A stretch of 62,398 nt of DNA, filler included, from Asterionella formosa (lineage: Eukaryota), in assembly GCA_002256025.1 (NCBI GenBank). It is 6 parts of 6 records of this genome, joined end to end, with 100 filler letters (N's around TTAATTAATTAA, not from the genome) between each part and the next. Parts side by side here need not be neighbours in the genome. Positions count along the whole stretch, not along the records: positions 55,324 to 57,017 come from NKIB01001469.1; 5 more parts are not named here. The stretch is one strand, 5' to 3'. The position numbers were made by a program, and so were the translations under genes. Every line of letters starts with the position of its first letter. Position 1 is the first letter of the stretch. Positions 19,039 to 62,398 of this stretch are shown piece after piece. Below the pieces are notes generated by a model. That model was not told where the DNA came from. It made no database searches and was given only the letters and a program-made list of their open reading frames with translations.

Positions 19039-19838
19039 CTTTAATCTTTTTATTTTAGCTTCTTGTCAATTTATAAATGAAAAAAGGTTTGTTCATCAAC
19101 AGATTATTATATTTACTTTATAGCTAAAATATAACCAGGTAGACTACCGGTATTCGTTTTATTAGGATGATGGCTGGGCTGACAGTATTACTGGTATGGT
19201 ACATGGATGGTACCAGGTACCTCGTGCTCCTACATACATACTCTGCCAGGGACCAGCACCAGTACCAGGGTGTACAGATTAGTGTACGTGGTCCATAGAA
19301 TTGATGAATATAATTCGGCATGCACATAATCATATACTATGTAGCTGCATGCAGGAGGTCTGTATTTCGTCACCAAGTGATCTACCGGTACTATAAATAC
19401 ATATTTATATTAATACGTATGATTTGATGTATTAATTATACATCATGCATTACATAAAATTTCTAAAAAAAGAAAAGTAAAAAATAAATGGCCAGAAACG
19501 TCTCACTTTTTGTTTACTGTCTGATCATACACGTCGAAATACCGTACCAGGTACCAGGTACCTGGTATAAGTACCAGGTACCTGGTATAATACCGTGATA
19601 GTCCCTGGTACTTCCATATGACGTGGTTTCACATGATTCATGCTTCCTTACTACGGTATGCTACCGTTGATACATCTGAAATTTAGTATCGGTAGATCAT
19701 TTTTTACGGTCGTGTCAATCATATCTTACGTTTCAGATATATCCTTCCTCGTTTCTACTTCTTCTTCTGGTCCATCTGCCTCGACAGTGGTTGGTGTCGA
19801 CGCCCTGTCAGTAGTAGTACTGTAATACATAGAAGAAG

Positions 19839-20582
19839 ATGCGATCTCGTCGTTGCGGCATAGTCGCATTACTAGTGATGACAATGTTGTCGGCTGTGAT
19901 GAGTTTTGCTCCGTTCACGAAGCAACAACAACGCCATTGGAGGTTGGAATCCTCCTCCTCATCATCATCATCATCAGAACAAGGCATCGTATCATTGACA
20001 TTGGACAAACCACTTGGATTACTATTGGAAGAAGTAGAAGAAGGTCAACCCAAGGGTGTTTTAGTACAAGACATAGCGCCGGGAGGATCGGCCTTTACCT
20101 ACAAGGAACAATTGATTGGTGCGCGTTTACACAAAGTTCAAGGAGAATCTGTCACTTCCATGATGTTTGAAGCGGTCATGGAAGCCATCATTGCTGCTCC
20201 AGCATCCTTGACTATTGATTTCATAACAACTAGCAGTGACACCACTACAGAAACAAATATTGAACTGGACATTGGGACACCTGTCACCATTACAGTGTTG
20301 CAAGATGGGACACCGACGAAAACATTGGCAGCCAAGGTGGGGGACAATTTACGAACTACCTTGTTGGCCAATAATGTGGAATTGTATCGTGGGCTTAAGA
20401 AGAAGTTGGGAAACTGTGGAGGAGCTGGACAATGTACCTTTTGTGCTGTTAAATGCAGCGACCTGGGAGAAGAATGGGCACCACGATCAGACTATGAAGA
20501 AACGAAAATTGGAAAATTTAAAAATGCTCGTTTGGCATGCATGACCAACATTCAAGGATCTGCCACTATTGAAATTCAGTAA
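19839..20582 (+). CDS. Plastid-targeted PDZ-like + 2Fe-2S ferredoxin protein
   Basis: Signal peptide with VMS-FAP cleavage motif. PDZ-like LDKPLGLLLEE...V..I..GGSA. Ferredoxin NCGGAGQCTFC...RLAC. Confidence 0.88.
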   Translation: MRSRRCGIVALLVMTMLSAVMSFAPFTKQQQRHWRLESSSSSSSSSEQGIVSLTLDKPLGLLLEEVEEGQPKGVLVQDIAPGGSAFTYKEQLIGARLHKVQGESVTSMMFEAVMEAIIAAPASLTIDFITTSSDTTTETNIELDIGTPVTITVLQDGTPTKTLAAKVGDNLRTTLLANNVELYRGLKKKLGNCGGAGQCTFCAVKCSDLGEEWAPRSDYEETKIGKFKNARLACMTNIQGSATIEIQ

Positions 20583-27609: not shown

Positions 27610-27709
27610 NNNNNNNNNNNNNNNNNNNNNNNNNNNNNNNNNNNNNNNNNNNNTTAATTAATTAANNNNNNNNNNNNNNNNNNNNNNNNNNNNNNNNNNN
27701 NNNNNNNNN
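27610..27709. other. Artificial contig-join spacer (N44-TTAATTAATTAA-N44); also at 55224-55323, 57018-57117, 58812-58911, 60606-60705
   Basis: Five identical 100-nt spacers with a six-frame stop linker. Contig lengths 27609, 27514, 1694, 1694, 1694, 1693 look size-sorted. Confidence 0.97.
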
Positions 27710-32708: not shown

Positions 32709-35700
32709 TTAAGTTGCGCTATTCATCATTTTCCGTCTTGCCATCGCAGTCTTTAGTTCTGCAATAATCTCAGAGTTGGAAGGCATAGGCTTCTTCCACA
32801 CCCAATCTGCTCCGGCTTCTGCAAATTGCTCGTCCATGTCGTTGCCCGAGCACCCAATTATGATTGACAATATCCTCATTCGTCGCATTGCGAACACTAC
32901 ATCAGTTCCAACCATGACACCACCAGCTTCTTCCATGTACTGATCAACAACAATTACATCAAAATTTTCTTTCCCGCAAATCTCAAGTGCTTCTTCTCCA
33001 GTTGAAGCTTCCTTGATGATTGCGTTAGGCGCAATACTTTTCATGATGCGACGCTTCAGCATCATGCGGTTCATCTTAACGTCGTCAATGATGAGGAATG
33101 AAATTTTTTCATCCATCAACGTCGAGTCGTCAACTTGCACTCCGACATCCGGAGGATCACAGATGGGTAAAGGCATGAGTACAATACACGACGTTCCGGG
33201 TCTAACTTTGGGATCACTGTCAAAACGGATTGATCCCCCCGTCAGATCAACCAAATGTTTGGCAATCGCTAATCCAAGACCAGTTCCTGGCGCCCCTCCC
33301 CTCTGAACGAAGCGTTCGAATAGCTTCTTTTGCTCCCCCTTTGGAATACCAGGGCCAGTGTCTGCGCATTCAAATTTGACAAACGCGCCTTCCCATCGTA
33401 TTATCAGTGTAATTGATCCTGATGTTGTGTACTTAATCGCATTTGTAATGACGTTTGTCATTACCTGCTGAATTCGATGTGAATCGCCGAGAACCCAATC
33501 CCTCCCATCAGTATCGCAAACTTTCAAAAACGCAACCCCGGGCCGTATTGATGGAAGCAACATCTTGTAAACGCTATCAAGCAAGGCCTGCAACGATATA
33601 GCAACTGCGTTCAAAGTCATTTTACCTTCTTCCATTTTTCGAACATCAAGTAGATTGTTCATGATCGACGACATGAAGCCTGTGCAGAGTTGCATTCCAT
33701 TTATCAAGCTTTTCGCGGACGGAGGCATGTCATCTGGCATTGCGTTCAAAGCGCTGTCGATAGCTCCCAACGGGTTGCGCAATTCATGGGCGAAGTAAGC
33801 TGTCATATTTCTTTCCGTTTCCACCTTGGCCTCTTGTGATGCCCTCAAATATTGCATCTCTCGCAACTCTTTTGCATGCCGACGGTCTTCCGTGACGTCT
33901 TGTGCAACACCCACAACGCCGACGATATTGCTTTCGGGGTCTTTTCTTGTAGTAGCATTTACAAGTAAGTACCTGATTTCACCTGACTTTGTCACAAACT
34001 CCAATTCGTAGTTTGCAGTTTCATTTCCTTGAAGTCCCCTTTCCATTACTTCTTTGACTGATTTCCTCAGCGAAGGAACAATGAATTGCACCAATGGCTC
34101 GTCAAAAGCTTCTTCCTTGAGATACCCAGTAATTTCTGCCGTTTTGTTGTTCCTATGTGTGTTCGAGAGTTAGCGCTACAAGTGCATTCAACAAATGAAA
34201 ATTGAAATATAAACATACCATTCGTTGATGTTACCGTCGCAATCAATACCAAAAATTGGGGCATTCGCGGTGTCAATTAGTTGTCGGAGTTCATTCGCCA
34301 TCCCCGCGACAGCTCGGTCACGCTGCACTGCTTCAGTGACATCCTGCGCAACACCAACAACTCCGACGACGTTATTTTCTGCATCCCTCCTAGTGGTAGC
34401 ATTGACGAGAAGATGTCTGATCTCGTTCGACTTTGTTCGAAATTCGAGTTCATAGTTCGATGTCCCACTACCTCGTAAAGCATTGTCCATTACATCTTGC
34501 ACTGATTGCCGGAGGGAAGGCACGATAAACGTCTCCACTAGTGGGCAATCAAATGCCTCCTCTTTCGTGAATCCAGTGATTTCAGCCGTTTTATCGTTCC
34601 TGTAGGCGAAAGTGGTCAGAACATAGTCTGTTGCGCCAGCAGGTCCCCTTCAGTAGCACGTACCATTCATTGACGTCGCCGTCCACATCAATACCAAAAA
34701 TAGGAGCATTTGCAGTGTCAATTAATTGTCGGAGTTCATTCGCCATCGCAGCTACTGCCCGATCGTGTTTCGCCGCCTCTGTCACGTCTTGAGCTACGCC
34801 TACAACACCGACAATATTGTTCTCTGCGTCTCGCCTGGTAGTAGCATTCACAAGTAAATAACGAATCTCATTTGACTTTGTTCTGAATTCAAGTTCGTAA
34901 TTGGACGTCCCTCTACCGTTCAAAGCATTATCCAATACTTCCTGCACAGATTGTCTCAACTTTGGAACAATAAATGTCTCAACAAGAGATCGATTGAAGG
35001 CTTCATCGCCGGTGAATCCGGTTATCTCAGCAGTCTTGTCGTTCCTATATTTCAACGTTTACAGTGTCAGAACAAGAGAAGCAGATGAGAAATGATATCA
35101 GACTGAAACTACTTACCATTCGTTGACATTGCCATTGATATCAATGCCGAAAATTGGGGCGTTGGCTGTGTCAACTAATTGTCGTAGCTCTCGAGCCATG
35201 GCTGCTACTGCTCTGTCATGCTGAGCGGCCTCCGTTACATCTTGAGCAATAATAAGGACACCCACAATGTTATTCTCATTATCCCTCCGTGTTGTGGCAT
35301 TCACCAACAAATACCGAATCTCACCGGAGATGGTCAAGAATTCCAACTCGTAGTTGGACGTTTCGTCACCTTGCAAAGCCTTATCCAAGACTTCTTGAAC
35401 CGAGTGCCTCAAGGATGGAACTATGAAGTTATCAACGAGGTGCTTATCAAATACCTCGTCCTTGGCGAAACCTGTGATTTCCGCGATTTTGTCGTTCCAC
35501 TCGTTGACGTCACCATCAACGTCGATGCCAAAAATAGGAGCATTTGCCTTGTCGATCAGCCGTCTAAGCTCGTTCGCCATTGCTTCCACTATTTTATTTT
35601 TTCTCCCCACGTTCGTAATATCTTGAGCGAAAACGATGACACCCACAATTTTGTTATTGGCGTCCCTTCTAGTGTTCGCGTTGAACAGAAAAAATCTCAA

Positions 35701-36771
35701 TTCCCCCGTTTTGGTTCTGAACTTCAAATCGTTATTAGATAATTCGACTCCTTTGAGGGAATGATCCAACACTTCTTGTATTCCTACTTGACAGCAAGGC
35801 TCGATAAAGGTTTTAACAAAAGGCTTGTACAAAACCTCATCTTTGCTGAAACCAGTAATCTCAGCAATCATGTTGTTCCACTCGTTGACCATCCCTTTCG
35901 TGTCGACTCCAAAAATTGGTGTTTGGGCATTTTCTAAAAAAGATTGAAGCTCTTGAGCGACAATGAATTTTCTTCTAGTCTTCTCCATATCCTCCGTGGT
36001 GTCTTGCGCACCAACATATATTAGTTCACCGTCGTGGAGAAGCGTCAAATTCAGGAGAAAGTACTTCAATCTTCCTCCCTTTGTAACAAATTTGATCTGA
36101 AAATTTGGCGTTTCCTTTCCGTCAAATGCGTCATACAGCATGGTCTTGGTGGTAAGCCGGTCTTCTTCGCTCACCAAAGATTCAACGAAACATTTTCCCA
36201 AAACGTCCTCGTCGGTGAAGCCAGTCACTCTCATTGCTTTCCTGTTCCAAAACTTGGTCAAGTAATTGCGATCAAGCGTGAATATAGGTGTTTTCGAAGA
36301 TTCCACGAATTCTTCATGTGATGGTGTTTGCGATGTCGACAAGCTGGATACTGACAGCAGACCATTTTGTAAACCTGACAGTACCTCCTCCGCAAATAAG
36401 ACAGCACCGATGTAGGATCCTTCATGGTCACGCAGCACTGAGGCTCTGATATCAAGGCGCTTCACATTTCCGCTCTGTGCGATTAATTCTACGACTTTAT
36501 TTGTGCAGTCCTCTTTACCTCCCTTGACCTCTGCTAGCCAGCCGAACGACAGAGCAAAGCTAGGGGAGATGTGTTCTAGCTTTGTACCGACTAAATCCTG
36601 AGCAGAATAACCCAAGATCTCCGTTGTCTTGCGATTCCATCCGGTTATTAGCTCGTCCTGGTCTACAACAACAATTGATGTCTCGACAAAATTGATCCAA
36701 TCTGGTGGTCGCGTTGGACTCGACGGTTCGACCATTCTCGTGTGATTGTCAATTCGTGCCCTTTTCTCCAT
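32709..36771 (-). CDS. Hybrid sensor histidine kinase: 7 PAS + HisKA + HATPase + receiver (4 exons, ~1286 aa)
   Basis: Exons 36771-35117, 35044-34664, 34599-34219, 34152-32709. PAS repeats ANAPIFGID..G.VNEWN, H-box AHELRNPL, N-box NVITNAIKYT, DTGPGI, GTGLGL, REC IIDD...VVDQYM...KP. Confidence 0.93.
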
Positions 36772-38630
36772 TTCGAGCCGCAGATCGATTCCTTGAAGTA
36801 AATGGCTCCTATCAAGCAAGAGTTAACGAGACTAGAGCGCCTCAAGTCAGCTGAAGAGATGACAGAAAGCCCCCTCCTATAGCAGGAGGTACAGTAATAG
36901 ATGAATGTATGATACTAGATATTTAATAGGGAGTACCTGGTAACCGGTGATAACATTCTGGAATATACCGGGTACCTGATGGTATGTATATACATTAAAA
37001 ATATTTTTTCTTGAGCGCAACTGGACGAAAAGACCAACTTATAAATGTATAGAGTATGGTACCTGGTAGTGTACCCGGTCATCTGGTTCTAGAAGGATAG
37101 TGCAGTGTACGGACGAGTATGTACCCGTATGTACATTAGTCGACGCCATGTGCGAGCTACCGGTATCTACATGCTGGTATTCTATCATAGTATGTTTTGT
37201 GATGATTCTGGATAAACCGGTTAGAAGATGGCCCAGTATGTACAAGCAATTTAAAGGTCTCAGACATCCAACGTGGTCCCTAGTAATCGTAGCTGAGGAC
37301 AAGAATCGTCGTTTAGGATTTGACAATCATGTATGAATGATGACAACATCCTTCCTATTCATATAAGTGTATTAATTACTAATTACTGCTACAGGTTCGA
37401 CAGTATCATGTGCATGAAGTACGACCGCAAGAATGTTATTCGCGGCTGCAAAATCTCTCGAATGACCCAACAAAGCCTATGACGTGCAACCTTCCGAGTC
37501 TGAAATTACCCTGGTACCTGGAACTGGTACCTACAGACATGAAGATACATAATATGATATATTTGTACTGTAACTGGAATATACCGGCACGTTGGAAAGG
37601 ACAGAAATGACCCCACTGACGACATTTTCCCGCTCAATCATATAACGGCATGTAAAACTCGGTACCTGGTACCAGGTACCTGTGTACCTGCTACTCTGTT
37701 CAATCAATGGTTTACTGGTCGTAGTCGTTGCAACCAAACTTTACGGCTTGGCTGATCATAAAGTGCAGCAAGCTCCGATAATTCTCTGGCCAACAGCCCT
37801 TCCTATTTGATATTCATTCTGAAACGATTTGTGTCTATAATATAAGTTCTAAGTAGTCTAGATTAAGGTGAACCTGACCTCGATTTTTTTGGCGCATTTT
37901 TCGTAGAATTGCACCTTGATTGGAATGTTTGCTCTGGATCTCCCCCTTTTTCGTTGACCCTTTGTTACTCAATAGACATAAGAAGAAGGATTTGACACCA
38001 GAACAGCGACAATACATTGCCGATTGCTTGCTTTGCAACCTAAGAAGGGAGACTGACAAGACTGTCGACATGGATGGTGGCCAGCTCCTCATAAATCTGG
38101 GCATGGTGCACAAAACTTTGGCTTTATTATTCGACATCTGTAGAACGAAATATTTTGTGTCCAGATACACATGCTTGTTAGTTTATTTAGCTATATCTCT
38201 TTGTTAGTAATAGCTGATATCACAAACACATGGACAGGTCAGTCAGTTAGTATGCTGGCCAACAAAAATCAAAGCCCAAAATGATCCATATCATGTATCA
38301 CTATTTAGCGTTATACATGCCCAAATATACTTATCTAACCAACAAACCCATCTTCAGCATTGTCTTGCGTAAAAAATACATATTGCTTCTAGAGAGGGCT
38401 TCTTTGCTTTAAGAATGTGGATCAGCCAAGCAACAAGCCAATGAAATGGATTGTTGCAACTATAGTTGAACAGAGGGAGCAAGCAGTACTGCAGAGGTAG
38501 GTCCTCCCTCTGTCCAATAACACTTGCATCGAGAATTCAAATTTCTCTGAGGCCATTTTGACTCCTACGATTTTCTCCGGCTTAATTGTCCTTTTGTGCG
38601 GCTTGCTCTAAGCTATAGATCCATGTATAT

Positions 38631-50604: not shown

Positions 50605-50790
50605 GGTACCGGTAGGTCTACTCGGAGTACCCTGGTATCAGGTACGAGTACCCGGGACCAGGTACCTGGTACTCCGAGTAACGGTAACTGATGGACCTGA
50701 TACCTGGTACCGCTGCCTTGTACTGGAACCAGGTACTAGGTACATACTACATCAGCGCATCTATTGAAGCCCAGAAATATCTGTACCGGT
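50605..50790. promoter_or_regulatory. Dense cluster of GGTACC / TACCWGGTA / TACCGGTA palindromic motifs (representative of many upstream clusters)
   Basis: Many overlapping copies here. Similar clusters at ~411-445, 13183-13350, 19130-19610, 24000-24305, 25405-25445, 29108-29310, 36930-37690, 49955-50430, 52710-52740, 58520-58811. Regulatory role is inferred from position only. Confidence 0.45.
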
Positions 50791-55223: not shown

Positions 55224-55944
55224 NNNNNNNNNNNNNNNNNNNNNNNNNNNNNNNNNNNNNNNNNNNNTTAATTAATTAANNNNNNNNNNNNNNNNNNNNN
55301 NNNNNNNNNNNNNNNNNNNNNNNATTGACATGTTGAGTTTGCCTCAGATTTCAGTTACAGTCAATTAATGCTCAAGCTACACACAATAAAATACCTGTCA
55401 ATCATCATAATGGCCTCTTATATACTAGCAGCTTTGGTTAGAATAGTGGCTTCCATTGAAGGAGTAGCTCTTTGCTGTTCCTCTGATGAAACCATGCATC
55501 ATGCTGGTCAGCGGTTGTTTCATCTCATTGTTGTAACCTTGTTGCTGAATGCGTTGATGAACAAGATGGTACAAGGGTTGTCTAATTGGTGAAAGAGGTG
55601 CAAGGTAGAGTCGATAATAAATGATGAAATTATAAGAGAGTTCTAAGCAGATATCTGCTACACATGTATAATGAGCTGTCATTGACTCGTTCTTGTCTGA
55701 AATTAACCTGTCTGATGTATTTATTCATTCATATATGCACGAATGGTGAGAATTACATATTTCCCTCAAACACAATTTTGTCAAAGCATCCAAATGTAAA
55801 CAAAAGAAACAAAGCTAGGAGTACTATCACAGCGATCCTACTAGCACTGGTAAGCACCCCCTCTCACCATTGAGGGTGACATATATTTACAGCCGCACAA
55901 TCTAATCAGACCCTTCTTGCTACCAAATCTCTACACGACTATAT

Positions 55945-56228
55945 GCAACGAGCTAAAAATACATGAAAGAATCAACAGAAACAACAAGAAACTCAAAAAG
56001 CTTGACAAAAATGAATGGAATTCAACAACATGCATCATTCAATTGAAGAGCGCATTTGTCGATATCCTGGCATCGGAATCGGGTCTGCACTGGCACTTTG
56101 AGCTGCACAATAACTACAGGGTACGCAATGAGCTACAAAATATGAAAGAATCAACAGAAACAACAAGAAACTCAAGGAGCTTGACGAATTGAATGGAATG
56201 CAACAACATGCATCATGAAATTGAGAGC
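55945..56228 (+). repeat. Direct repeat, 2 x ~105 bp
   Basis: GCAA.GAGCTA...ATGAAAGAATCAACAGAAACAACAAGAAACTCAA...CAACAACATGCATCAT at ~55945-56051 and ~56125-56228. Confidence 0.85.
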
Positions 56229-56302
56229 ATTCATAACTGTATTATCATATGAATCAAAATAACGGTTTTATATGATCAATAGGATTGCGATCATGAGTTA
56301 AC

Positions 56303-56432
56303 TTCTGGATAAAAGTGGCAGTTATCCCTCATAGATTCTTTAGTATCCTTCATAGCCCCTTTTTATCGACTATTTTCGGGATAGTTAGCCTAGTATGATT
56401 CCTTGAGGGATAACTGCCACTTCTCCCCAGAA
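56303..56432. repeat. MITE-like foldback with ~29-bp imperfect TIRs
   Basis: TTCTGGATAAAAGTGGCAGTTATCCCTCA vs TGAGGGATAACTGCCACTTCTCCCCAGAA, with a 19-bp perfect core. Confidence 0.7.
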
Positions 56433-56745
56433 ATAAGGTCCTTACCATATCTGAAGATAGAATACCCTTAAGTTGACCAATGGCTGTATCGAAGCATATG
56501 CAAAGTGGTGGTATTGGTGAAAGCTAATTTTACCTTGAACTTTTTTTTTAGTTGTATGTAATTTCTGGATTGAGGTACATCATAAAAGTATTTTGGGAAA
56601 ATACAGACCTCGCAATTCGTAACTCCGTGGCCACAACCTCACAAAGCTAATGGAGAAGGTATCAGGGACAGAGCATATAAGAACTGTTAAAAGGTCTTGT
56701 ACTCCTTCCCGTCTGACAGGTATCTTCTTACATAGGTCTTACCTA

Positions 56746-56991
56746 AAAAATAAAAAATGTCAATTAAATTTTTAAGTACATTAAAGCTATCCAATAATTG
56801 CACTCGGGCCCACCAAAGAGATGGACACAATTAGTACCAGTTTTATTCATCCGTACGGTACAACAGGACCTGTCTTTTTGTCAGTCGCACCCCCCAGAAC
56901 CCTAGTAGGGACTACATGAAAAAGACAGGTGGAGAATGCAGGAATCGAACCCGCCACCACAGTGGGTATGCTAACCACTAAGCCGTTCCCC
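56746..56991 (-). mobile_element. tRNA-derived SINE (~246 bp) with 17-bp TSD
   Basis: TSD TACATAGGTCTTACCTA at 56729-56745 and 56992-57008. Head GGGGAACGGCTTAGTGG (A box)...GCGGGTTCGATTCCTGC (B box/T-arm)ATTCTCCA, a 12-bp stem (56868-56879 with 56919-56930), and T-rich tail TGACATTTTTTATTTTT. Confidence 0.82.
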
Positions 56992-57117
56992 TACATAGGT
57001 CTTACCTATTTATATACNNNNNNNNNNNNNNNNNNNNNNNNNNNNNNNNNNNNNNNNNNNNTTAATTAATTAANNNNNNNNNNNNNNNNNNNNNNNNNNN
57101 NNNNNNNNNNNNNNNNN

Positions 57118-57800
57118 ATAACTTTTTTATTTTCTATGTTTTGAATCATAAAATTCTCCCATGCAGCCTGCACATAGCCTTTGAATGGCTTGTTGACGCC
57201 CACATCCAGTACTTGAGCGAAGCTGGGATGTGTAGCCAGGGGTTATATACTAGTCGACCTCAGTGCCACAAGATTTAATGGCATCTACACAATTGCCAAC
57301 TTTGTGGACCGCCCGAAAAGTCGTCTATTAGCAGGTAAGTTGTCTCTCCTAGGAATCCCTGAGTCCAGGGCTTCCAAACCTGCTCGATCCAATTCAAGAA
57401 GACAGCTTGGTGTACCCAAGCCCTGGCTTGGCAAGAGTATTTCACTGAAACCGGAAATTGGTTTGGTGGATTGATGGCTAACTGCCTGCTTATCTGTCCA
57501 TCACTGGTTCCCTTGAACGCAATGAATGAGTCTTCTTGTGTTCTGAGCAACATGTGTCACTGGCTTGCTGAAGAACAATATACCCTCTTTCATCATCCAT
57601 TGCTTGACCCTCTTTGACAGAACCACAAGAGAAACATTTTCGTTCCCAGCCACCCTTTTAAGCTCAATAGCGAGCGAGCATTTGAATGGTGCAGCATCAA
57701 TTTGCTACCTCAAACCATCAAAAGTTGACCGCAACATTTCGAACTCACCAACACTTTTTCCCACCCCACCTTGGTGAGCTGTTTTCTTATTCAAAATCTG
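57118..57800 (-). pseudogene. Degenerate pogo/Tigger-like DDE_1 transposase
   Basis: VTHVAQN, FIAFKG, CQARAWV...WIEQVWKPW, LLIDDF, QVLDVGVNKPFKGY, with stops, frameshifts and an apparent internal deletion. Confidence 0.8.
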
Positions 57801-58425
57801 CAAGAGCTGATGATTTGGTTGATTGCCATTGTCCTCGTCGCTGTCGTCTCTTCTTGGAACAGGCAAGGACCCAAACATGGTCCTCCATCGCCTCATCTGC
57901 TCAGGTAACACAGAATAGGCTCTTGTGGATGGCTTAATGTTGTTGGCTACGAAAACGCTTCTGCCAAAATTGTTTTCTTCTGCCTGAGGGAGATGAATTT
58001 TCTTGTCATGATGCCCAAATAAATAACACAATGTGGTTGGCTTGCAGAAATGCCGGCAAGACAGAACCTTGTAGAACCCACACAAGATAATATAGGTGTA
58101 GAAATAGGTATATGCAGCTACATCACTCTAAAATTTAGTATGTGGCTAGTGCTAATTTTTTGGCGCACAAACAAGTGTACCAAAATTAGGAAAATCAAAT
58201 CAAATGACCATAGAAGCTGATTCAACCAAGAACAATATTACTTTTTATGTACATTTGTATGTTTTGAACTATGGAGAATACAATGGGGATGATGTTTTGA
58301 TCAACTGAAGTGGGCAATGTCAAAATTGCCATTGTTCTATCTCCCCAACTAAGTAAATCTAGTTGTGGGTGTGTACATTTGAGGAGACGTGAGCATGGGA
58401 TTTACAGTAATACCTTTCGATTATG

Positions 58426-58748: not shown

Positions 58749-58911
58749 GACTCCGAGGTACCAGGTACCAGGCACCCTGGCACTCGTACCTGGTACCTGG
58801 TACCTGGTACCNNNNNNNNNNNNNNNNNNNNNNNNNNNNNNNNNNNNNNNNNNNNTTAATTAATTAANNNNNNNNNNNNNNNNNNNNNNNNNNNNNNNNN
58901 NNNNNNNNNNN

Positions 58912-59153: not shown

Positions 59154-59201
59154 GGCGTATTTCGCGTCTTAGATGAAGTGTAGACTTTTAGAGGGCACTT
59201 A

Positions 59202-60605
59202 TGTCAGAGAGAGAGAGGGAGAGACGATCGCTTACAATGGATCGACAGCGATCGATTGATAGAGAAAGTGAGTTTTAGAGTGAAAGAATTAGGGATACTA
59301 TTGCTAGCTACTGGGAAAGACCTACTTGCGTATGTTCTAGTACAGGGTAACCGGTACCCTGTACTAACACCCCCCTGGAGTAGGAAATCTTCCGCGGGGC
59401 GGAACAATAATATTGCGGAGGCGGAGAAAATGGGCATCGTCCTTGTGTTCTTTGGTGAAGAGATCAGCAACATTAAGGGCACCAGGGAGGTGGGCAATGA
59501 GGATTTTGGAACAACGATGAGCATCGCGAACAGCCATATTGCGGATGTTTAAATGGCGCATTTTCTTGTTGGCACAGTTGTGGGACCAGTCGACCGCCCC
59601 CTTATTATCATTCCAGACGGTGGTGGGGAGTGTAATCTCGTCTGGCATGTGGAGATCAGCAAGGAGGTGACGGATAAACTGTGTAACTTTGGTACCTTCG
59701 TCAGCAGATTTGATTTCAGATTCGCAGGTACTACGGCTGACCCGAGGTTCGCGAATGACATGCCAAGCCAGTGGGCCACCAGTACGAGTACTAATGGAGC
59801 CAAGGAGAGAGCAACATTCAGTGAGAGTGATGAGGTCACTGGGGTGAGGTTTAGAGGCGTCCTGGGGGCCCCAGTTAGCATCGGTATAGGTGGTGAGGAG
59901 AGGATCATCCTTGGGCCAACCGTAGGTAGTGGAGAGGTAGGAGGATGCAGACTGGGAGGTGAAGGCAATAACATGGTCAAGGGACCCAGAAAGGTAGCGT
60001 AAAACATATTTAGCACCAAGTAGGTGGGCCGGAGTGGCCGTAGAATTATACTGCGCAAGGAGAGTGACAGCGACAGAGAGATCGGGACGAGTGCTAATCG
60101 CGAGCCAGTTGAGGGCGCCAATGAGGGATTGGTAGGCGGTAATGATGGTAGCGTGGGCTAAGGGGCTAAGGTCAGCGCCGTCGGGGGTAATCCGATTGTA
60201 CACGAGACCCGAGCGGTAGGGAGTAGGCGCAGACCGACAGGTGGTCATATCAAAGCGTTCAAGGAGGTTACAGAGGTAAGCCTCCTGAGAGAGATGGACG
60301 GAGAGGTGGGTATCACCTGAAGAAGGAAACCAGGCAAAGTAAATGCCCAAAAACCAGGAAAGAGGCCGCATAAAATCGACACGGAGGGAGGCGGCGATGG
60401 ACGCCTCAAACCATTGTTCAACGTCATCACTGACCGAGAAATAGGCAAAGTCGTCAACATAGATGCCAACATAGAGAGGGGGGTAGCCAGTGAGGACAGT
60501 CCCATAGAAGAGGCAGGGTTCGTGGGGGCATTGAGCAAGACCAAGGGAGAGGAGGACGTCCCGAAAACAGGTATACCAGTGGCGGGGGCTACGTCGGAGG
60601 CCGTA
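59202..60605 (-). mobile_element. Ty1/copia (CoDi-like) retrotransposon 3' part: RT-RNase H, PPT and 168-bp 3' LTR
   Basis: Frame is open from the gap to the stop at 59364: YGLRRSPRHW, YVDDF, WFLG, YQSLIGALNWL, TRPDL, YTDANWG, DNKGA, ADLFTK. PPT G6 at 59375-59370, LTR TGTTAG (59369)...CTGACA (59202). Confidence 0.93.
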
Positions 60606-60705: not shown

Positions 60706-61019
60706 ATACTGTCTTGACTGAACTTGGTCTCTCTGATAATTCAATTGATTATAGCTTACTTAATAAAATTCAAAGAACAGTTGAGATAAGCAAGCACGTT
60801 CCCAAACCGGATAACATTGATGATAATGTTTTCAAATGTTTAAAGGATCTAGCAGCAGCCCTGATCTGGGAGGAAACAACCCATATCGGGGTGGATGATA
60901 TTAAAGCCCGGTTGAAAGATTGTCCTGAAGCTGCAAAGGTGCAAGATCGCCATGGAAACACTCTGTTGCACCATGGCATGAAAGTTTTTGCAAACTCCAA
61001 CAACATTCACGATGCCTGA
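60706..61019 (+). pseudogene. Truncated tandem duplicate of the LRR-ankyrin gene (last LRR, linker and first ankyrin-like repeat)
   Basis: 60706-60984 is nearly identical to 61694-61972 (offset 988). It breaks off 27 bp before the next ATG (61012). Confidence 0.75.
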
Positions 61020-62398
61020 ATGGGAAGAAGATGTCAAACGGTTGAAAGCGAATGATCCAAGTTTGACTTCACTTAATCTCTATAATAAAATAATTGGTGT
61101 TGACGGAGCCAAGGCCATTGCAGAGGCTCTCACGGTCAATACTGTCTTGACTAAACTTTCTCTCGGATGGAATTCAATTGGTGATAACGGAGCCAAGGCC
61201 ATTGCAGAGGCTCTCAAGGTCAATACTGTCTTGACTGAACTTGGTCTCTTTAATAATTCAATTGGTGATGATCTACGAAACGATATAAACAAATTCATTG
61301 ATGCAAACAAGAATCGCAAGTCATTGGAAGAATATGTCAAACGGTTGAAAGCGAATGATCAAAGTTTGACTACACTTTCTCTGAAAGGGTAATTCAATTT
61401 TGATGATGGAGCCAAGGCCATTGCAGAGGCTCTCAAAGATAATACTGTCTTGACTACACTTTATCTCAGAGGTAATTCAATTGGTGTTGACGGAGCCAAG
61501 GCCATTGCAGATGCTCTCTTGGTCAATACTGTCTTTACTACACTTTATCTCTATAATAATTCAATTGGTGTTGACGGAGCCAAGGCCATTGCAGAGGCTC
61601 TCAAGGTCAATACTGTCTTGACTACACTTTATCTCAGTGATAATTCAATTGGTGATGACGGAGCCAAGGCCATTGCAGAGGCTCTCAAGGACAATACTGT
61701 CTTGACTACACTTAATCTTTCTAATAATTCAATTGGTGATAGCTTACTTAATAAAATTCAAAGAACAGTTGAGATAAGCAAGGACGTTCCCAAACCGGAT
61801 AACATTGATGATAATGTTTTTAAATGTTTCAGGGATCTAGCAGCAGCCCTGATCTGGGAGGAAACAACCCATATCGGGGTGGATGATATCAAAGCCCGGT
61901 TGAAAGATTGTCCTGAAGCTGCAAAGGTGCAAGATCACCATGGAAACACTCTGTTGCACCATGGCATGAAAGCCCGGGCACCAGTGGAAATTATAAATGC
62001 CCTTTTGGAAGCTTGCCCTGAAGCGGTGACAAGAAAAGTCAACAATGATGAGACTCCTCTTGCCTGTGGTCTAGGAGGGGAAAAGCGAGTATCACTAGAA
62101 TCCATCCAAGCTATTGTGGACAAATATCCTGAGGCCATTAACTCCATGAAAATGCCCTTTATTCCACTTCATTTGGCAATTTTTCGACATGAAAAAGTTT
62201 CAGAGATCGAGCAGATCATAATAAAATACCCAGATTCAGTTGCAAACTATGGCACTCCAAACCTGCAGTCACCTCTTCTTCTCGCTTTGCAACAAGGAGA
62301 TTATCCTGATTTTGAGGTCGTCTGTATTTTGATTGAAAAACACCCAGATGCGACTAACACTCTTGATAATGAAACGAGTTATAATCCATTTGAATATT
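61012..62398 (+). CDS. RI/NLRC3-like 28-aa LRR protein with C-terminal ankyrin-like repeats; in-frame TAA at 61390-61392; runs off the window
   Basis: 84-bp units TVLTxLxLxxNSIGxDGAKAIAEALKVN and two caps VKRLKAND.SLT, then CPEAAKVQDHHGNTLLH, CPEAV..ETPL, YPEAI..IPLHLA. The frame is open from 61393 to the end. Confidence 0.8.

Follow-up and report, generated by a model that had tools for sequence, protein, structure and literature searches.

Which kind of element occupies the 246 bp that are enclosed, on the minus strand, by two exact 17-nt direct repeats in the genome of the diatom Asterionella formosa, and how did it come to lie there? The window, i.e., the whole stretch of DNA that was analysed (62,398 nt, composed of six joined parts of assembly GCA_002256025.1), contains a single, non-tandem copy of this insert (56991-56746), which an earlier note had considered to be a SINE with a tRNA-derived head. 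Comparison of the window with itself places the direct repeats at 56729-56745 (3' copy of the target-site duplication) and at 56992-57008 (5' copy), with an offset of 263. Block shuffling of the window, repeated 100 times, gave on average 0.11 and at most two exact repeats of at least 14 nt at a spacing of 80-600 bp per shuffled window, and the remaining repeats of this kind in the window itself are mostly tandem or gene-internal duplications. Both the coordinates and the shuffle control thus bear out the insert and its exact flanking repeats as they had been described in the earlier note. Terminal inverted repeats are lacking at the edges of the insert, and its visible 5' flank comprises 9 nt, after which a gap follows at 57018.

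Read in its own direction, the insert begins with a tRNA-derived head of 62 nt (56991-56930), followed by a perfect 12-bp body stem (5' arm at 56930-56919, pairing with the 3' arm at 56879-56868), by a 3' body (56867-56758) and by a T-rich tail of the form T6-A-T5 (56757-56746), the last T of which can be assigned either to the tail or to the duplication. Stem and tail were found as the earlier note had claimed. The 3' body, which occurs in high copy and is common to the second full copy described below, is a candidate LINE-related region. The fold energy of the whole element is not better than that of shuffled sequences (z -1.2).

The head, counted up to the discriminator A, is around 11 nt shorter than a tRNA. 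It possesses a 6-bp acceptor stem with a G3:U70 pair (pair 7 being broken in the window copy), a 3-bp D stem with a loop of 8 nt, a 4-bp stub in the place of the anticodon arm, and an intact T arm. An A-box-like sequence, a putative internal promoter element, is situated at 56975-56984, and a perfect B box coincides with the T loop (56941-56951). All parts that had been claimed for the head are present, although the A box can only be called A-box-like and the acceptor stem is incomplete by the broken pair. The further claim of a shortened D/anticodon region that precludes a tRNA holds with regard to length and to ARAGORN, which reported no tRNA in the window and none in the second full copy; the D arm, however, is largely kept, and the loss concerns mostly the anticodon arm. 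A full cloverleaf, a 7-nt anticodon loop and a length of around 73 nt, as required for a functional tRNA gene, are not found in the head. Since G3:U70 and the discriminator A are identity features of tRNA-Ala, the head can be called alanine-like under these general identity rules, and the label rests on these two features; overall, Thr and Ala tRNAs match the heads equally well.

Aligned to two annotated phage tRNAs, the head shows one gap of around 10 nt over the anticodon arm. The window head agrees with phage tRNA-Thr at 48 of 62 aligned positions (66% of columns) and with phage tRNA-Ala at 48 of 58 (62% of columns), and the head of the second full copy agrees with each of them at 47 of 62 (64%), these tRNAs having been picked for their T-arm match and not being the human tRNA set of SINEBase. 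None of 500 shuffles matched the tRNAs as well as the heads did (62-66% of all columns). BLAST searches with the head yielded 110 short T-arm matches in phages, many of them within tRNA or tmRNA genes, and no match in E. coli genomes; two degenerate scans of viral contigs recovered no full-length parent tRNA. Concerning known RNA families, no Rfam family reached its gathering score over 55500-58200, which together with the ARAGORN result leaves the head without the match to a known tRNA or ncRNA gene that the earlier note had named as speaking against a SINE. The sole Rfam match in this region was to the tmRNA model, a member of the tRNA clan, and involved the acceptor stem and the T arm (19.7 bits vs. 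a gathering score of 47). An identity as tmRNA was rejected, as 312 model positions remained unmatched in addition to the low score and the missing ARAGORN call. The likeness results from shared tRNA-Ala features: the tRNA-like domain of tmRNA equally combines an alanine-type acceptor stem and T arm with the loss of a normal anticodon arm, a pattern that presumably recurs in other anticodon-less tRNA mimics, whereas the insert is nuclear, of high copy and without a tmRNA body. The head likely serves as a promoter and folded 5' cap, and not as a decoding tRNA.

A second full copy (locus L001) was the one locus found by an exact-pattern scan of metagenome contigs; the same scans found none in viral contigs and none in prokaryote genomes, and BLAST of the element against plasmids gave chance-level matches only. 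L001 exhibits 84% identity to the window copy over aligned bases, and its flanks are unrelated to those in the window. Its B box is identical to that of the window copy, and the body stem retains its 12 pairs in each copy, one change being compensatory and two being wobble changes. With two sequences only, the observed covariation values are reached by 256 of 500 shuffles, and the fold of the body-stem region has a z of -2.0 in the window and of +0.9 in L001. The two sides of L001 agree at 11 of 13 nt, and the sequence concerned does not resemble the window duplication; among 820 overlapping control windows, 26 matched as well. Judged by sequence, this match is a probable decayed target-site duplication, weakened as such by the 51-55 nt tandem array in which the copy is embedded. 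The two full copies whose flanks were read, both of which were examined in this respect, thus differ in their duplications (17/17 in the window, 11/13 in L001). In L001 (135-215 and 329-517), the copy is situated downstream of the apparent end of a frame which, by its motif, we take to be a Copia RNase H, and inside tandem repeats.

The abundance of the insert was assessed with contigs of four of 24 listed runs (X1, X2, X4 and X16), which were aligned to 56240-57017 (778 bp) at 80% likeness. X1 possibly represents the source sample; X2, X4 and X16 originate from three studies other than that of X1, X16 being a metatranscriptome, and algal or freshwater samples make up most of the runs that contain the stretch. 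The aligned contigs, in which two flanking repeats are counted in, numbered 9643 in X1, 1552 in X2, 105 in X4 and 451 in X16, and most were less than 95% alike. Relative to the first flank bin, summed depth over 56760-56993 is 366-2464x in X1 and 184-1431x in X2, and drops at 56994-57017 to around 3x and 2x, respectively; such sums, which overlapping contigs and related families inflate, are not to be equated with copy number. A pile-up over the insert, with a drop at both ends and unlike flanks beyond, exists in all four runs, and one variant site in X1 is represented by up to 115 contigs, such counts being capped at 128. Loose contig ends are found at the tail (56752; 29 contigs in X1, 21 in X2 and 10 in X16) and at the start of the head (56991; 14 contigs in X16), and they agree with each other to 0.40-0.45 only, as many different flanks would lead one to expect. 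A further set of loose ends, at 56958 in four of four runs, belongs to a variant subfamily that retains the 4-bp stub stem but carries another loop. In addition, some joints point to variants with replaced middle segments (around 56810 to 56906).

The insert is, accordingly, an interspersed, multi-copy repeat with sharp ends and differing flanks, of which many copies exist, plausibly hundreds. The single-copy state that would have argued against a SINE is contradicted by the contig pile-up and by L001. An assembly artefact can be dismissed as well, since one X4 contig (56398-56804) spans the 3' junction. Another X4 contig departs at 56721 into a target-like sequence (18/22 by eye) with a single copy of the target and without the SINE tail, and may constitute an empty-site-like paralogue of the repeat into which the insert has been placed. 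This host repeat (its end at 56685-56728, LTR-end-like by eye) is itself of high copy, as indicated by a depth peak at 56682-56733 and by loose ends at 56685 and 56721, and it ends near 56685 with unlike flanks. The minus strand of the host repeat (56685-56745 and 57009-57017) shows, by eye, a TATA-like stretch immediately ahead of the duplication as well as a terminal ACA, which we take to resemble a short LTR's end. By their surroundings, both full copies are nested in other repeats.

The insert thus very probably constitutes one copy of a SINE: Pol III, directed by the internal A and B boxes, would have transcribed it, and a LINE's endonuclease and reverse transcriptase would have pasted it into another repeat. 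The tRNA-headed SINE of the earlier note is supported by the multi-copy, interspersed nature of the insert, its sharp ends, the second copy elsewhere and the lack of any Rfam family at gathering score. Transcription by Pol III, capture of the transcript by a LINE protein and target-primed reverse transcription are established SINE biology, and the mechanism itself is textbook. Applied to the insert, Pol III would transcribe source copies from the A and B boxes, the protein of a resident LINE would recognize and capture the transcript through the 3' body, and target-primed reverse transcription would insert the copy into another repeat, where staggered cuts 17 nt apart would leave the 17-bp duplication. 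Pasting by a LINE would explain this duplication, the length of which fits insertion by such a partner; no LINE with a matching tail was found in the window.

In SINEBase, SINEs are defined as interspersed elements of less than 1 kb whose head has at least 60% identity to a tRNA over at least 60 nt, and A and B boxes are regarded as an indication only of transcription by Pol III (PMC3531059). The insert agrees with the three working points of that source, as to copy number by indirect evidence. With the tRNA-derived SINEs listed there it shares the length below 1 kb, the interspersed occurrence in many copies, the succession of head, body and tail, and the A and B boxes, whereas its occurrence in a diatom, the T5 run after the head, and a head that is without most of the anticodon arm yet foldable set it apart from them, as far as they are characterised in that source (PMC3531059). 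Similarity exists also to the Au-like SINEs of plants, mobilised by LINEs of the RTE clade, which likewise combine a tRNA head with a T-rich and not a poly(A) end (PMC6007223). Of the further Au-like traits given in the same source, a duplication that starts with T is found in both copies; L001 has no T stretch near P-10, a position that falls within the gap in the case of the window copy; a 3' end in common with an RTE LINE also belongs to the signature (PMC6007223).

Concerning termination, a run of five T (56923-56919), claimed earlier to lie just after the head, is present 6 nt past the head and inside the 5' arm of the body stem, and represents a candidate Pol III terminator. In vitro, human Pol III is stopped very efficiently by such a run, which in yeast represents the canonical signal (PMC3141230). 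The suggestion that the hairpin might mask this terminator is not borne out: 40 nt separate the run from the 3' arm downstream of it, which is transcribed only after the polymerase has reached the run, such that the stem cannot act at that moment, and in the computed folds the five U have a pairing of 0.02-0.28 in transcripts of 75-100 nt and of 0.85-1.0 from 125 nt onwards, i.e., they are mostly unpaired until the 3' arm exists. In L001, no run of four or more T precedes the tail. A consensus of loose ends at 56921 in X1 and X2 exhibits five A on the plus strand, with a weak agreement of 0.58-0.59, and the run may hence not be private to the window copy. Read-through by Pol III is reported to be common, and pausing at terminators to be lost behind very stable RNA structures (10.1101/2025.10.17.683076), so that leakage through the T5 run, aided by the folded head, is possible. 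The window copy would mostly yield a transcript of around 70 nt, which makes it a probable dead end or else a leaky template; as full-length copies exist, source copies must either read through the run or be without it. RNA contigs of X16 span 56777-56989; they possibly derive from DNA or from Pol II read-through, and polymerase, strand and ends are not readable from contigs. A scan for sigma-70 promoters and intrinsic terminators found nothing, these being bacterial signals that are inapplicable to Pol III.

The same run gives rise to another explanation, which is compatible with a SINE origin: the head might be a functional, anticodon-less mimic of tRNA-Ala, whose transcript stops at the T5, is trimmed of its 6-nt trailer and receives CCA, so as to form an RNA of around 65 nt that is charged or acts as a decoy, the run being an attenuator between this short RNA and the full-length transposition intermediate. 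The succession of head, 6-nt trailer and T5 is indeed the layout of a tRNA gene, and the five A in the loose ends at 56921 extend it possibly beyond one copy. G3:U70 and the discriminator A are kept, as is the stub stem, the loop of which varies among the window copy, L001 and the 56958 variant found in four of four runs. Moreover, both full copies can be folded into a mini-cloverleaf with four arms (18 head pairs, 35 of 36 cells paired), which is the minimum-energy fold of the L001 head, but not of the window head. The fold energies, however, are no better than those of shuffles (z -0.3 for the window head, and likewise not better for L001), acceptor pair 7 is broken in the window copy, L001 is without the T run, and covariation is not demonstrable from the two sequences. 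The conservation of the T arm and of the 3' strand of the acceptor is partly due to the search pattern, and it is expected from promoter constraint alone. A functional mimic is, on balance, unlikely. If it were true, the T5 copies would be mini tRNA genes that release a CCA-ended, alanine-chargeable RNA of around 65 nt, whereas read-through would lead to the full intermediate; diatoms would then possess an abundant small RNA that is new and is supplied by a SINE with an attenuator of its own.

Still less credible is that the insert forms one module within a larger mobile element (the internal region of an LTR element, a non-autonomous DNA transposon or the 5' end of a LINE) and that its 17-bp repeats arose by local duplication. 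The nest of other repeats around it and the 5' flank cut by a gap would suit such an origin, yet coverage declines at either end towards unlike flanks, the flanks of L001 differ, terminal inverted repeats do not occur at the insert, and the target-like contig does without it. Equally improbable is an origin as a processed pseudogene, derived from a tRNA or a cellular Pol III RNA and retroposed once or a few times, to which the tRNA-like head with its terminator-like run and the sub-threshold tmRNA match would correspond, as a body and tail of 180 nt are shared, many diverged copies exist, both full copies have the short anticodon arm, in line with the distinction between SINEs and RNA pseudogenes drawn in SINEBase (PMC3531059), and every Rfam family stays below its gathering score.

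The surroundings of the SINE are rich in other repeats. The stretch 56290-56620 is another repeat of high copy in all four runs, with a 36-nt inverted repeat (56303-56338 and 56397-56432), and possibly a MITE or transposon end; it is preceded by a tandem duplicate of around 180 bp with 87% identity (55942-56228). On the minus strand at 57118-57700 lies the remnant of a DDE_1 (pogo/Tc1-like) transposase, broken by stops and frameshifts, two pieces of which match PF03184. A gap-cut fragment of a Copia-type reverse transcriptase (RVT_2) is found on the minus strand at 59364-60605; by eye, a purine tract follows it, together with a short LTR (around 59179-59369). A 279-bp duplicate with 95% identity (60706-60984 and 61694-61972), which begins at a gap and is situated around an 84-bp leucine-rich-repeat-like array, may be a local mis-assembly. 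A short repeat containing GGTACC occurs at 19544-19587, 50631-50679 and 58750-58811, in one case adjoining a gap. The gaps at 27610, 55224, 57018, 58812 and 60606 are identical (N44, a 12-nt all-frame stop spacer, N44) and represent artefacts of assembly, not biology. Among the genes, an intron-split one on the minus strand (32709-36822) contains, by eye, many PAS-like repeats and a histidine kinase and receiver-like end. For the gene at 19833-20582, the best homologue with an organism name is from Synedropsis, a diatom, and the remaining legible names are presumably also those of diatoms, which supports a diatom setting of the insert.

SINEs were formerly believed to be missing in single-celled eukaryotes (PMC7466962). 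Elements of the same class and from the same phylum as the insert have been called by annotation pipelines in Phaeodactylum tricornutum, Cyclotella cryptica, Skeletonema costatum and Pleurosigma pacificum (PMC5859163, PMC7466962, PMC8147415, PMC12803021), with 13 putative SINEs of 1,454 bp in total for P. tricornutum in one of these papers. The claim that SINEs are rarely reported in diatoms agrees with these four genome papers, the consulted parts of which give class labels or totals only and, unlike what is found for the insert, no head, duplication or partner (PMC5859163, PMC7466962, PMC8147415, PMC12803021). SINEs are likewise unmentioned in the main text of a further paper (PMC12044402). 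Among titles and abstract openings of the literature searched, in which subscription papers are thinly covered, there is no description of a diatom SINE family. Judged from this literature, the family is likely, though unproven, to be uncatalogued.

The insert is a real, high-copy tRNA-derived SINE of a diatom, and probably a new family of a known kind. By its defined head, body and tail, its long duplications and its many copies, it would provide a well-defined stramenopile SINE, which could supply insertion markers for strains and which would offer a means to test Pol III termination and the partnership of SINEs and LINEs in diatoms.
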